Assembly: GCA_030041435.1 (NCBI GenBank)
Contig: JASHNW010000115.1
Span: 38,921 to 102,920, forward strand
Length of the DNA stretch: 64,000 nucleotides
From: Acidobacteriaceae bacterium
GTDB lineage: Bacteria > Acidobacteriota > Terriglobia > Terriglobales > Acidobacteriaceae
Direction: 5' to 3'
Below are positions 626 to 31,987 of the stretch, one piece after another. The notes below the pieces were generated by a model. The model worked only from the letters and a program-made list of their open reading frames with translations. It was not told where the DNA came from and ran no database searches. The translations under genes were made by a program, and so were the position numbers. The first letter of the stretch is position 1. Every line of letters starts with the position of its first letter.

Positions 626-817
626 CGTGGCGCAGTCGCCTGTCGCCCAGATTGTTCCGCAACAGGCTGGTCTGCCAACGTGAGATCCACCTGTGACGAT
701 CGGTCAGGATCTGGCCGAGGCGCTCCTCTCAGTTCCAGTTGAGCGCCCGCACCCTTACAACTCGTCGCGTCGCGCGATCTCTGCACGCTGCAGCCTGAAC
801 GCTGTACCCTGTACCCC

Positions 818-27655: not shown

Positions 27656-27719
27656 TCCCCTCCAACCCGCCAGAACCTCTGGCCCCGATCTCCGCTCGCT
27701 CAAGTCTGTACGCTCCCTG

Positions 27720-27987
27720 GAGGCTGTTATTAACTTTCGCACGACCGGCGCTGAGAGCCCATTTTCCTCAGTTCGAGGAGCGAGGAGCGACAGATACCGA
27801 GTGTATCTTAGCGACGAGCGACGACGAAATGGGGAAAATGGGCCCCAGCCCTGCGGGTTGCGGGGGAAAATCGGGCCATACTTCATTCTCGCCCTCGACA
27901 GTGGACCCGCCACAGCCTTCGGGCTCGGCTTCGTCTGGCCCGATTTTCCCTCGCAACGCCGGCCGCGGGAAAGTTAATAACAGCCTC
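27720..27987. repeat. 268-bp MITE-like / highly structured palindromic element
   Basis: Perfect 19-bp terminal inverted repeats GAGGCTGTTATTAACTTTC (27720-27738) and GAAAGTTAATAACAGCCTC (27969-27987). Inside are four copies of GGGAAAAT(C)GGGCC arranged as two nested hairpins. Confidence 0.55.
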
Positions 27988-30776
27988 TAGCGGTCCGCCT
28001 TCTCCGGCAACCCCGCCGTGATCATCGGCAGCCCCGTCACCGGCCAGTGGCTCACCTCCGCGTCCACGTTCGCCGCCAGCGCGCAGTCTGCGTTCACCAC
28101 CGGATCCACGTCGACGTTCCAGCCATCCACCACCACCACCGGTTCGCCGCCCTGCAAATCGCTCAGCGCCGCATCGATGTGGATCGTTCTGCTCTCTCCC
28201 GGCGCCAGCGAAACGTAGTTATCCGAATAGAACACCGGCAGCACCCGCGGCGCCCCCAGCGCCTGATCCTCGAGCCCCGCCGCGGTCACCTCCGCGCCCG
28301 CGCTCAGCCGCCGCAGCTGCACGTGCGCCAGCAGCGCCATGTTCCGCCCCGGATTCGTCAGCGTCACGTCCAGCCCCAGCCTTCCGTTGGCATCCTGCCG
28401 CGTAATCGCCGCCGTCAGCTTTTCCGGCGGCATCCAGTCCATCCGCGTCAGGTCCTGCCCCGCCGCGGGACTCGGCTTCCAGTACAGATTCCGCGACACC
28501 ACCTTCCCCTGCGCATCCTTCAGCTGCAGATCCACAAAATAAACCGACGGCACGTACCGCGGCATCGGCACGCCCCCCAGATCGATGGCCGTATCCGCCG
28601 GCCCGCTCACCGGAATGTCCTTCTGCACCATCGCCTGCGCCGAGTCGCTCCAGTAGCTCAGGCCCCACACCGTCACGTGCGCTGTGTCTCCCTCAATCGC
28701 CACCGGCAGGTTGTTAATCACCTGCAGCTCGTCGTTCGCCTCGTCCATCTGAATGTGCACCGGCTCCGCCGCCTCTTTCACCGCAAACAGCGACGCATTC
28801 GGCTCCAGATCGTACGCGTAGAGCTGCCACACAAAGCTCGGCTGCGCCGGATTGCTCATCCACGTAATGATCCCCGTGTCCGGCCTGAACAGATACGCAT
28901 TCCGCCCCTCGTACATGGCGCGATACGCCTCGTAGTTCATCATCTGCGCCTTGCGCACAAAGTCCGCCAGGTTTGCCACCCTCCCGTATCGCGCCCGCAG
29001 CGCATACGGATACCGGTCGCCCTCCGACGCGCCCTTGGCCAGATCGTGCGCGCCCCAGTCGTCGTCGATCGTCTCCCAGTCCTTCTCCGGCATCATGGCG
29101 TGGATCGACTCGATCGTCGGCACGCTCACGCTCCCCGTCTCCGTCTTGAACGGCGCATCCTGCGCGTAGTACGCCTCCGGATCGCGCCAGTCGTACGGCC
29201 CGCCGCTCATCACCCCGCGCCCCGCCGTCGAGCTCGGCTGGTAGAGCCGCGCCGGATCCAGCTCCGGAATCATCTTCGACAGCGCATCGTGAATCGCCGG
29301 CGGCGGATATCCCTCGTTCCGCGCGCACCACAGCGCAATCGACGGATGATTCCTGTAGCGCAGAATCTTGTCCTTCACGTTTGCCAGATAAATATCCAGA
29401 TCGTCCGGATTCGGCCCGTCGCTCGGGTTCGGCTGGAAAAATTCATCCCAGATCAATATCCCGTACTGGTCGCACAGCTCGTAGAAATCCTCGCTCGTGC
29501 TCTGCCCCACCCAGTTGCGGATCATGTTCATGTTCGCCAGCGCGTGCATGTGGATCTCCGCGTCCAGCCGCGCCCGCGGAATCCGCTTCAGCGCCTCGTC
29601 CAGCCCCCAGTCGCCGCCGCGGATGAACACCTTCACACCGTTCACGCTGATGGTCAGCGCATCCATCCCGCCATAGGTAATCTTCCTGATGCCAAATTGC
29701 GTCTCCGTCGCGTCCGAATCCCGCCCATGCTCGACGAAATGTAAGTGCAGCTGATACAAATTCTGCGGCCCGTACCCGTTCGGCCACCACAGCTTCGGAT
29801 TCTCCACGTGCAGCGCTGCCGCCGTCTTCGCATCGAAGCTCACCGCCAGCGTGCTCACCGGCTTCAGCGTCACCGGCTGCCGAAACACAATCCCCGGCGT
29901 CCCCGGTTGCGACGGCAGCGGCTCGATCTCCCCCACCACCTCGCCCTTCACCTCTTTGCCCGACGTGTTCTCCAGCGTCGCCTTCACCGTCAAATCCGCT
30001 GAGTCCGTCCGCGGCAGCGGCAAATCGGTAATCACCAGCGGATCCTCCACCAGCACCGGCCCGCTCGCGCTCAGCCACACCTTCTGCCACAGCCCGGTAT
30101 CGCGGTCCCGCACCGCGTTCAGCCAGTCCCACCCAATCGTCGAGAGAAACGTCGGCCCGTCAATCGCCGTAATCCCGCCGTTCTTCCCCAGCCCGTTCGC
30201 AATGTCGTGCTCGTGCGGCACGCCCGGATGCGGCTGCGGGCTCACCTTCACCGCCACCACCGCCGTCTCCCCCGCCCGCACCAGCTTGGTAATGTCGAAC
30301 CGGCCGCGGATAAACGCGCCCTGGATCGTTCCCACCTGGGTCCCGTTCACCCACACCTCGCTCGTAAAATTGGCCCCGTCAAAGTGCAGCCACACCTGCC
30401 GGTGCCCGTACGCCCGCGGCACCGTCACCGTCGTCCGATACCACCAAGCCGTCTTGTTCAGGCTCTCCGGTATCGAGCGGTTGTTCTCGCCGTACAGCGG
30501 CTCCGGATACACCCCGTCCGCCACCAGATTGGCCTCCACTGTCCCCGGCACCGTCGCCGCATACCACCCCTCGGGCGTGAACGCCGCCGTCGACACCACC
30601 GACGGAGCCGCGCTCACCTTCGCGCTGTCCTGCAGTTGCCACCCCGACCCCATCTCCACCACTGCCGGCAACGCGCCCCTGGACGTATCGTGCGCCGACC
30701 CGACCTGCGCCCACGCCCCGCTCGCCGCCGCCAGCAAAACCGCCAGCCCCGCCCAAGTTCTCTTTCCTGTGAACAC
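27987..30776 (-). CDS. glycoside hydrolase family 2 (exo-beta-D-glucosaminidase / beta-mannosidase-like), secreted
   Basis: GH2 sugar-binding, Ig-like and TIM-barrel order (..WVNGTQVG..; ..WCARNEGYPP..; ..ITWMSNPAQPSFVWQLY..). A GTG start at 30776 gives VFTGKRTWAGLAVLLAAASGAWAQ. The track start 30971 lies inside REP repeats. Confidence 0.8.
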   Translation of the reverse strand: MFTGKRTWAGLAVLLAAASGAWAQVGSAHDTSRGALPAVVEMGSGWQLQDSAKVSAAPSVVSTAAFTPEGWYAATVPGTVEANLVADGVYPEPLYGENNRSIPESLNKTAWWYRTTVTVPRAYGHRQVWLHFDGANFTSEVWVNGTQVGTIQGAFIRGRFDITKLVRAGETAVVAVKVSPQPHPGVPHEHDIANGLGKNGGITAIDGPTFLSTIGWDWLNAVRDRDTGLWQKVWLSASGPVLVEDPLVITDLPLPRTDSADLTVKATLENTSGKEVKGEVVGEIEPLPSQPGTPGIVFRQPVTLKPVSTLAVSFDAKTAAALHVENPKLWWPNGYGPQNLYQLHLHFVEHGRDSDATETQFGIRKITYGGMDALTISVNGVKVFIRGGDWGLDEALKRIPRARLDAEIHMHALANMNMIRNWVGQSTSEDFYELCDQYGILIWDEFFQPNPSDGPNPDDLDIYLANVKDKILRYRNHPSIALWCARNEGYPPPAIHDALSKMIPELDPARLYQPSSTAGRGVMSGGPYDWRDPEAYYAQDAPFKTETGSVSVPTIESIHAMMPEKDWETIDDDWGAHDLAKGASEGDRYPYALRARYGRVANLADFVRKAQMMNYEAYRAMYEGRNAYLFRPDTGIITWMSNPAQPSFVWQLYAYDLEPNASLFAVKEAAEPVHIQMDEANDELQVINNLPVAIEGDTAHVTVWGLSYWSDSAQAMVQKDIPVSGPADTAIDLGGVPMPRYVPSVYFVDLQLKDAQGKVVSRNLYWKPSPAAGQDLTRMDWMPPEKLTAAITRQDANGRLGLDVTLTNPGRNMALLAHVQLRRLSAGAEVTAAGLEDQALGAPRVLPVFYSDNYVSLAPGESRTIHIDAALSDLQGGEPVVVVDGWNVDVDPVVNADCALAANVDAEVSHWPVTGLPMITAGLPEKADR

Positions 30777-30838: not shown

Positions 30839-30992
30839 GGCACGACTTCAATCCGGTGTCCCCGACGAGCATCCTCGTTGGGGTGGTAGTCGTGCCGCAA
30901 CGTCGTACCGCGCTTTGAAAGGGCACGGTTTCAGTCGTGCCGTAACGTCGTACCGCGTTTTGAAAGGGCACGGCTTCAGCCGTGCCGTAACC
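30839..30992. repeat. REP-like hairpin cluster with 2.3 tandem copies of a 45-nt unit
   Basis: Long hairpin GGCACGACT..AGTCGTGCC (30839-30896). 45-nt units at 30889-30933 and 30934-30978 match at 42 of 45 positions, each ending in a GGCACGG(T/C)TTCAG(T/C)CGTGCC hairpin, plus a partial third unit. Confidence 0.7.
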
Positions 30993-31142
30993 GCCGCCCC
31001 AGTCACTCGGGCTTTAGCCCCTGAGGGATGGTTTTCAGCCATTCCCGACTTTGCGCAAGCTGGATATAGACCCCATCCAGTATTCACATCCAGACGCGAA
31101 ACAACAACCACGCGGCGCCGCAAACAGCACGCAGCGGGTGCC

Positions 31143-31171
31143 CCATTCAAGCCTTCCGTTGGCTTGAGTGG
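31143..31171. repeat. REP-type palindrome, family CCAYTCAAGCC-N7-GGCTTGARYGG (copy 1)
   Basis: CCATTCAAGCC-TTCCGTT-GGCTTGAGTGG. Confidence 0.6.
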
Positions 31172-31201: not shown

Positions 31202-31404
31202 ACTGATCGCTGATCGCTGAGCTCTGAGCTCTGAGCCCTGAGCCCTGAGCTCTGAACGCTGAACGCTGAACGCTGATCGCTGATCGCTGTTCCCTGATCG
31301 CTGATCGCTGTTCCCTGAACGCTGAACGCTGATCGCTGAGCCCTGCGCTCTGCGCCCTGCGCTCTGCGCCCTGAGCCCTGCGCTCTGCGCCCTGATCGCT
31401 GGTC
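31202..31404. repeat. array of 29 tandem degenerate heptamers (N-CTG-NN-C)
   Basis: Read directly: ACTGATC GCTGATC GCTGAGC TCTGAGC ... CCTGATC GCTGGTC. CTG and the final C are invariant in all 29 units. Higher-order 21-nt (x2) and 14-nt (x2-3) sub-repeats are present. Confidence 0.95.
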
Positions 31405-31408
31405 CAGC

Positions 31409-31987
31409 CTACGGCGTCCCAGCTCCCGTCGCCGGCTTTCGGTTCTGCAGGAACTTCGCCAGCGCGTTCACCAGGTCCTGGCCCTGCTTCCTCTCCGCAT
31501 CGCCCTGGTTCTGCACCGCGCCCGTTGCGCCGCTCGCGCCCCAGAACGAGGGCTGGCTCTTGATCTGCTTCGTCCACACCGCCGCTCCCGTAGCATCGTG
31601 CAGCGTGTACTCCATCACCAGGTGCGCGCGGCCTGCGCCCCAGCCCACCAGCGTACGCGCCGCCGCGCTGCCGCCGCCGAAGTCGATCTCTTTCGCGTTG
31701 AGCGTCCACGCGCCCGCCGGCGCCGCCGGTACGGTCGCAAACGACGTCACCCCGGCGAACAGATTCGCATACTCGAGCGCATTCAGGTCCGCCTGCTGCG
31801 CCATCGCCACCGCCTGTGCGGCCTTCGTGTCGCACTCGAATTTCGCGATCCAGAGGTTATTCGTAACGGTTGCCGTTGCCTGATCGGCGCTTTTCGCGCC
31901 CCCGGCGCCTGCCGGATTCTGCGCCCCCACGGCAGCTCCACTCAACACAAGGATTCCAGACAGAAATAACTTTCCAATTCGGCCCAT
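31409..31987 (-). CDS. secreted hypothetical protein
   Basis: 192 aa with signal peptide MGRIGKLFLSGILVLSGAAVGAQ and balanced composition. No family recognised. Confidence 0.55.
   Translation of the reverse strand: MGRIGKLFLSGILVLSGAAVGAQNPAGAGGAKSADQATATVTNNLWIAKFECDTKAAQAVAMAQQADLNALEYANLFAGVTSFATVPAAPAGAWTLNAKEIDFGGGSAAARTLVGWGAGRAHLVMEYTLHDATGAAVWTKQIKSQPSFWGASGATGAVQNQGDAERKQGQDLVNALAKFLQNRKPATGAGTP

Follow-up and report, generated by a model that had tools for sequence, protein, structure and literature searches.

How does a run of 29 contiguous seven-nucleotide units come to lie directly behind the stop codon of a bacterial gene, and does it serve the genes on either side? The run in question lies in the window, i.e., the whole analysed stretch of 64,000 nucleotides from the genome of an Acidobacteriaceae bacterium (source genome G000: 5.77 Mb, 134 contigs, 62.7% G+C, 99.7% complete). 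A sequence-only reading of this DNA had suggested a hypervariable minisatellite, a periodic protein-binding or methylation array, or a structural spacer.

Architecture and Setting of the Array

The features of the window that are needed for the following are:

31203..31405, - strand: heptanucleotide tandem array of 29 units (sequence, period, stops, strain polymorphism, folding)
31409..31987, - strand: DUF4410-family gene, 192 aa, with a TAG stop 3-4 nt before the array (PF14366, E 4.6e-8)
27987..30776, - strand: GH2 glycoside hydrolase gene downstream of the array, true start near 30776, longest ORF to 30971 (GH2 domains)
30839..31171, no strand: REP-like hairpin cluster between the array and the GH2 start, not built of heptamers (TRF period 45)
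781..816, + strand: second, short heptamer array with the same skeleton, about 5 units of the CTGAACG, CTGCACC and CTGTACC types (TRF periods 7 and 14)

The array comprises 203 bases, in which all 29 contiguous units read CTGNNCN on the + strand and are phase-locked; the absence of phase slips, noted earlier, was confirmed from the sequence and by TRF. The sequence-only reading was right about the repeat run itself and placed it one base too far to the left for the CTG phase. It had also counted CTGATCG nine times, which would give a total of 30 units; the counts are CTGATCG 8, CTGAACG 5, CTGAGCC 4, CTGAGCT 3, CTGCGCT 3, CTGCGCC 3, CTGTTCC 2, and CTGGTCC 1. On the - strand the units follow the pattern NGNNCAG and appear as CAGCGAT, CAGCGTT, CAGGGCT, CAGAGCT, CAGGGCG, CAGAGCG, and CAGGGAA. 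The higher-order periods of 14 and 21 nt that had been described within the array were recovered by TRF, and stop codons were found as stated, with TGA in all + frames (6-7 stops per frame); the - strand has none. Palindromic tetramers are regularly spaced along the + strand (8 GATC, several AGCT and GCGC). The array folded better than all 200 shuffled versions, with z -3.5 for DNA and z -4.8 for - strand RNA. It contains nine GGG runs with loops of up to 11 nt and no canonical G-quadruplex motif (regular expression: at least four G3 runs on one strand with loops of up to 7 nt). The Rfam scan of 29.5-33.5 kb gave sub-threshold chance matches only, and the promoter and terminator scan at the array locus gave nothing above shuffled sequences. 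A CRISPR array was rejected since the 7-nt units are contiguous and lack spacers, as opposed to repeats of 23-50 nt split by unique spacers.

Both distances to the neighbouring genes agree with those reported before: a gap of 3-4 nt separates the array from the TAG stop of the DUF4410 gene (31409-31411, - strand), and about 430 nt separate it from the GH2 gene downstream. Phase-variation contingency SSRs are placed in a coding region or a promoter spacer, where changes in unit number switch a gene on and off; the studied array is placed behind one stop and ahead of the next start, and the promoter scan detected no promoter-like site there. Its AG strand is the sense strand of the upstream DUF4410 gene, and the - strand is also the locally G-rich one. 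The REP-like cluster includes a 45-nt unit present in 2.3 copies (30888-30991; TRF). Behind the GH2 stop, positions 27715-27990 hold a multi-copy inverted-repeat element of 268 bp, copies of which (93-95% identity) were found on at least four other contigs of the same genome and in the congeners G002, G311, and G018. This element behaves like a MITE common to several species.

Polymorphism between Strains and Absence in Other Species

Two further public contigs encode a DUF4410 protein of exactly this sequence. One of them, L007, is 100% identical and ends at the array edge, a typical assembler break. The other, the ENA metagenome contig L006, is 96.8% identical overall (~97% in the flanks) and carries the same array at the same place. 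Past a degenerate junction unit, its first 16 CAG-phase units match those of the window except for one substitution; beyond these, L006 has a third copy of the 21-nt block, one CAGCGTT fewer, and two CAGRGCT fewer. The two arrays hence differ by whole-unit indels (+21, -7, and -14 nt) plus three substitutions, with a net difference of +7 nt, and all three BLAST gaps in 1.4 kb of alignment fall inside the array. The comparison of array length between strains that had been proposed earlier thus yielded a difference in whole units between two strains of about 97% identity, which bears out the hypervariable minisatellite among the earlier suggestions.

Whether the array could be an assembly artefact or a cryptic coding repeat was weighed with the same contigs. 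Short-read assemblers do break at such arrays (L007 stops at the edge of this one, and contig C6 of the source genome begins inside another), and the - strand is open in all three frames. However, an independent contig, L006, spans the array with the same flanks, so that two independent assemblies cover it and the artefact considered by the sequence-only reading did not materialise. With a net length change of 7 nt between the strains, the array preserves no reading frame, which rules out a coding or read-through extension of DUF4410; an ORF through the array would moreover overlap the DUF4410 gene out of frame. An artefact or a coding repeat is thus barely conceivable. The array is a real, non-coding, copy-number-variable minisatellite. 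The in-phase gain and loss of units between strains is the footprint that slipped-strand mispairing would be expected to leave.

Outside the species the locus looks different. No array was present downstream of the DUF4410 orthologues at 57-63% identity (L002, L004), nor in the upstream regions of GH2 orthologues at 77-81% nucleotide identity (G009, G006, G296, G302, G304).

Three side observations were made on these contigs. In G302 a different heptamer array (CAGGGCT, CAGGGCA, and others; L012:3514-3563) follows the TAG stop of the GH2 orthologue at a distance of 3 nt and is an independent instance of the stop-abutting, AG-sense configuration. The 45-nt hairpin unit of the REP-like cluster, with 2.3 copies in the window and about three in strain L006 (L006:1430-1560), is itself copy-number polymorphic. 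The end of contig L006 (L006:1566-1598) is a Nextera transposase adapter that was left untrimmed in the public assembly.

The Array Family in the Source Genome and Its Distribution

TRF returned 210 period-7 rows for the source genome. With our own lag detector, 118-145 arrays of at least five units were found at lag 7 versus 0-3 at lags 5, 6, and 8-11 under the same thresholds, and the array is therefore far beyond chance. The 118 arrays, aligned by expectation maximisation, share a skeleton of A (0.90), G (0.97), and C (0.75), which reads (G)CT on the other strand and holds 5.09 bits of information compared to about 2.85 bits after column permutation within each array. Within arrays, the G of AG mismatches the neighbouring unit in 2.6% of cases against 11-33% at variable positions, i.e., 5-13 times less. 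The arrays are mosaics of unit types in constant phase, with 164 distinct units in 118 arrays, and the units of the studied array (AGCGATC, AGCGTTC, AGCTCAG, AGGGCTC, and others) are ordinary members of this family.

In 66 of the 118 arrays the main unit contains a four-nucleotide palindrome (AGCT, CCGG, GATC, or another), whereas 39.5 +/- 4.6 would be expected. The RNA of the AG strand folds with a median z of -1.8, and 45% of the arrays fall below -2 as compared to 17% of intergenic controls. Such hairpin-prone units fit growth driven by slippage and would also permit a role as RNA. The G-quadruplex expression was matched by 46 of the 118 other arrays. Some arrays at internal positions consist of AGGGTTT or AGGGTAT units, which correspond to the plant-type telomere repeat TTTAGGG (e.g., C40:31043-31095; C102:71269-71297; C118:19506-19535), and long arrays of GCTGGGA/GCTCCCA that are open in six frames lie inside long predicted ORFs (C6:12896-13114, C6:25726-25901, C127:108918-109094).

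The distribution among genomes was determined using a probe of eight CT dinucleotides at 7-nt spacing. It matched 22 of 24 congeners and 6 of 16 sister-family genomes, with one same-genus contrast of 350 versus 0 matches, and in a spread sample of Acidobacteriota it matched 113 of 251 genomes, some of them more than 500 times. The uniqueness that the sequence-only reading had implied is thereby refuted, as the array is one of more than 100 heptamer arrays in its own genome; the search of genome and relatives which that reading had recommended succeeded at home (118-145 arrays) and among congeners (22/24), and the array is not unique. The same reading knew of no described equivalent in Acidobacteria. 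Our literature searches for heptamer arrays in Acidobacteria likewise returned no description, and yet the arrays themselves are common there.

Loss of mismatch repair was rejected as a cause because MutS is present in all 41 relatives, whether array-rich or array-free. The mutS genes of two array-rich congeners look fragmented, with in-frame stops or split matches (G014:C16:17671-20379; G015:C1:464305-466980). Other array-rich genomes have an intact mutS, and there is therefore no general link to mutS damage.

Position Relative to Genes and Strand Composition

According to home-made gene calls, on which all gene-position figures rest, 19 of the 118 arrays share more than 21 nt with a confident ORF, and the other 99 do not. 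Array-gene junctions of at most 5 nt were found in 28 of 110 cases facing 3' ends versus 4 of 72 facing 5' ends. Arrays that abut a stop were AG-sense in the mRNA in 31 cases and CT-sense in 6, and this ratio was reversed at a distance of 51-200 nt (5 versus 22). The abutted stop was TAG in 21 of the 31 AG-sense cases as opposed to 29% genome-wide (p 8e-6) and often forms the first unit of the array.

In 95 of 111 arrays (86%; p 7.5e-15) the AG strand coincides with the strand that is locally richer in G, as it does in 50 of 53 where the absolute GC skew exceeds 0.15. Arrays also reside in regions of high skew, the median absolute value being 0.147 compared to 0.080 at random positions. Regional skew ranges from -0.26 to +0.20 in 20-kb windows, independent of gene strand (mean sense-strand skew 0.002). 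In this fragmented assembly the G-rich strand is presumably the leading strand. The studied array, with a TAG stop, AG-sense orientation, and the - strand locally G-rich, matches the commonest configuration of the family.

The sign of the GC skew changes over 40-60 kb (e.g., on contigs C110, C108, and C23), and rearrangements, islands, or mosaicism of the MAG are possible causes of the unusually strong regional skew. Two further readings found little favour. Primase sites (CTG or CTA template triplets) were rejected, as the CT strand lies on the C-rich strand and is the wrong template for lagging-strand priming. Chi-like or KOPS-like signals in the AGCGG and GCTGG units seem unlikely, given the great diversity of the units and the skew that every G-rich word shows in this genome.

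Association with PF05635 Cassettes

PF05635 is the 23S-rRNA-IVS/Avd-like family of four-helix-bundle proteins. Each of the six PF05635 genes of the source genome belongs to a small cassette in which a pair of inverted heptamer arrays encloses the gene, the left one always AG-type and the right one CT-type; arrays and cassettes are thus physically linked in this genome. Across 35 loci in the genus, left arms were AG in 24 and CT in 1 case and right arms CT in 18 and AG in 2, against a background of 18 out of 161 stretches of 350 nt (11%) that hold any array. Every array-bearing genome among the 41 relatives was PF05635-positive (29/0/5/7; Fisher 3.5e-5; Spearman 0.70). For the phylum sample, cross-tabulated by hand, PF05635 was found in 69 of 77 array-rich versus 63 of 174 other genomes (odds ratio 15, p 4e-16), where these genome counts, like those of the relatives, ignore kinship and genome size. 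At least two array-rich genomes (G210, G216) had no PF05635 match at E<=1e-8, and the cassette is thus not strictly required.

Units are also shared between arms and arrays that stand alone. Of the units in solo arrays, 47% recur unchanged in the arms of the six cassettes, versus 9.5% under a composition-matched null. The cassette on contig C28 is of a type that is syntenic in five species, with arms of AGCG[A/T/G]TC units and a left arm of about four units that begins a few bases past a TGA stop; in L028, a copy outside this synteny, identical units start at a TAG stop. The studied array is built of units of the C28 and C102 cassettes and, like left arms, follows a stop in AG-sense orientation. 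The 21-nt block of the array (two CAGCGAT plus CAGGGAA, the latter being CAGGAAA in L006) is similar to the inner end of the left arm in C28-type cassettes. No inverted partner arm is found near the array, and no similarity to PF05635 was detected within 1.2 kb of it or in the whole window, the adjacent ORF being without a match. Most arrays of the genome are likewise solo, with only five AG..CT pairs within 1 kb. Descent of the studied array from a cassette arm is plausible but unproven.

The idea that each PF05635 clade has one unit of its own was weakened, as units drift within one syntenic locus and equal units occur with two clades (L028). The loci L043 and L045 are syntenic with L019-L023 by their outer flanks and differ from them in PF05635 clade and in unit (AGAGCTC versus AGCGTTC), which may be due to cassette replacement at one site or to an artefact of flank clustering.

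Origin of the Array and Alternative Explanations

We consider it probable, at roughly 60%, that this non-coding and hypervariable heptanucleotide minisatellite is a solo member of a genome- and phylum-wide AG(C)/(G)CT array family which was most likely seeded by, or descended from, the arm of a PF05635 cassette and then expanded by slippage, and which for its neighbours is probably a neutral or selfish by-product. The array would have started from a cassette arm (order: 5' AG-arm, gene, CT-arm 3') and would then have expanded, gaining and losing whole 7-nt units or blocks of 14 and 21 nt through slipped-strand mispairing during replication or repair. Self-complementary unit cores (GATC, AGCT, GCGC) and poor repair of 7-nt loops may have aided the slippage. 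At present the array would be a hairpin-prone spacer in a 3' untranslated region.

The closest alternative invokes polymerase slippage alone: the array would be a plain heptanucleotide simple sequence repeat (SSR) without any causal tie to PF05635, and arms and solo arrays would both draw on one lineage-specific tendency to amplify 7-nt units. Heptanucleotide SSRs are indeed the commonest class of long SSR in many bacteria, and polymerase slippage has been named as their source (PMC4679880, in its summary of Mrazek et al., 2007; PMC4692102), loops of more than 3 nt escape mismatch repair (PMC4060949), and both the block structure and the unit indels agree with such an origin. It would also accommodate the predominance of solo arrays and the array-rich genomes without PF05635, and with MutS in all 41 relatives no repair defect is needed. 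It does not account for the bracketing of 6/6 PF05635 genes, and most of the 35 loci, by arms of fixed polarity against an 11% background, for the lack of arrays in every PF05635-negative relative, or for a sharing of units between arms and solo arrays that is five times the null expectation; nor is a conserved AG(C) skeleton with a G of low variability predicted by a slippage that is blind to the unit. We therefore hold this account to be possible but doubtful. An extension in the opposite direction would make heptanucleotide arrays in general the functional components and remnants of a hairpin cassette that is widespread and carries a PF05635 gene (encoding an Avd-like, nucleic-acid-binding four-helix-bundle protein), which inserts just after stops with a fixed AG-to-CT polarity of its arms; solo arrays would then be orphaned or seeded arms that are still expanding, perhaps because the PF05635 protein binds or acts on AG(C)-phased heptamers. 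If true, it would explain why a 7-nt unit is favoured and why arrays track replication-strand composition, and at present we regard it as speculative and rather unlikely.

Compared with descent from a cassette arm followed by slippage, the readings that give the array a function in its present place fare worse. As a REP-like RNA element at the 3' end, the array would be transcribed together with the DUF4410 gene, and its long, imperfect hairpins behind the stop would protect against exonucleases, terminate transcription, or stall terminating ribosomes, and the number of repeats would tune the effect. The distance of 3-4 nt from the stop, the excess of AG-sense over CT-sense arrays at stops (31 versus 6), the folding of the array RNA (z -4.8) and of AG-strand RNAs in general, and the similar stop-proximal bias of heptamer repeats in Xanthomonas and Nostoc (PMC4692102) would suit such an element. 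It is nevertheless unlikely, as conservation of the locus does not reach past the species, strains vary freely in unit number and order, many arrays are at 5' ends, between divergent genes, or within ORFs, and over half of the arrays show no excess folding; the locus itself has no terminator-like site and no Rfam family above threshold, and the enrichment of TAG suggests that arrays supply or overwrite stops rather than serve them. A dedicated function for the neighbouring genes is in this sense possible but unsupported, and it could be function, not origin, that accounts for the stop-codon bias and the conserved skeleton. The sequence-only reading had further proposed a periodic protein-binding or methylation array on double-stranded DNA, e.g., a Dam-type or nucleoid-protein landing pad with GATC, GAGCTC, or GCGC every 7-21 bp. 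The eight GATC and the several AGCT and GCGC sites with their regular spacing, and the enrichment of palindromic tetramers in the units of the family, are in line with this proposal. Against it, a search of the 99.7%-complete genome for PF02086 (D12/Dam), the sole methylase family searched, gave no match, GATC, AGCT, and GCGC are normally represented genome-wide (GATC observed/expected 0.89), GATC is found in 8 of the 29 units and is lacking from most arrays of the family, and the number and order of sites differ between strains. A methylation array thus found no backing, and a landing pad of this kind appears very improbable.

Comparison with Known Repeat Systems

The repeat class as such is known: heptanucleotides were reported among long SSRs (Mrazek et al., 2007, as summarised in PMC4679880), and heptameric SSRs of the units GGGAATC in Xanthomonas and GGGGAYT in Nostoc/Anabaena were described in detail (Rehm et al., 2015, PMC4692102). 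The latter occur at about 100-200 loci per genome, are about 90% intergenic and nearer to the upstream ORF, often lie 0-50 nt from a stop or overlap it when the G-rich strand is the coding strand, and vary in length and sequence among close relatives, for which slippage was proposed (PMC4692102). The arrays reported here share the tandem 7-nt organisation, the order of 100 or more loci, and the intergenic, stop-proximal, and strain-variable character. They differ in that many unit types share an AG(C) skeleton and form mosaic arrays, in that the units also make up the arms of PF05635 cassettes, and, for the studied array, in the lack of a canonical G-quadruplex motif. Array orientation follows the local GC skew in 86% of cases here, whereas no strand preference was reported for Xanthomonas (PMC4692102).

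The comparison with STRR sequences drawn by the sequence-only reading was apt, given tandem 7-nt units in many dispersed and mostly intergenic copies. Reports of STRRs date from 1990. In heterocystous cyanobacteria (Calothrix/Anabaena), STRRs are likewise intergenic tandem heptamers with several unit families and many copies, as far as they are cited in PMC4692102. Their units are few and fixed, of other sequence and from another phylum, as opposed to 164 distinct units in 118 arrays, and the array with its CTGNNCN units in a member of the Acidobacteriota is accordingly not an STRR in the strict sense. TAACTGA repeats of marine Beggiatoaceae and Microcystis (MacGregor, 2015, PMC4679880) are also intergenic direct heptamers with a CTGA and with stops in all forward frames. 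In these repeats a single fixed unit recurs 2-6 times, mostly a short distance ahead of a start codon, unlike the 29 heterogeneous units after a stop described here, and an identity with them was rejected since unit and position differ.

REP and BIME sequences of enterobacteria are likewise hairpin-prone intergenic repeats concentrated after stops. REPs are palindromic units of about 35 nt that are spread by a RAYT transposase, and their palindromic units do not form 7-nt tandem arrays. The cassettes carry the same protein family (PF05635) as the intervening sequence (IVS) with S23p in the 23S rRNA of Coxiella burnetii (PMC4990558) and as the Avd proteins of diversity-generating retroelements (PMC10053308), and they resemble the IVS in placing the gene in a long stem-loop. 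Unlike the IVS, they lie between protein-coding genes and not in rRNA, with stems made of tandem heptamers, and the studied array has neither a gene nor a partner arm.

Our literature searches point to no earlier description of this known class in Acidobacteriota, and the present case extends heptanucleotide repeats to this phylum and to nearly half of the sampled species genomes. Any model of such repeats must explain an AG(C) skeleton under free variation of the unit, strong co-orientation with local GC skew, and a preference for the positions directly behind TAG stops. The arrays are breakpoints of short-read assemblies and can serve as high-resolution markers to tell strains of uncultured soil bacteria apart. 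The link to PF05635, which sets them apart from the repeats of Xanthomonas and Nostoc, makes the question "why seven?" experimentally addressable through protein binding and cassette mobility.
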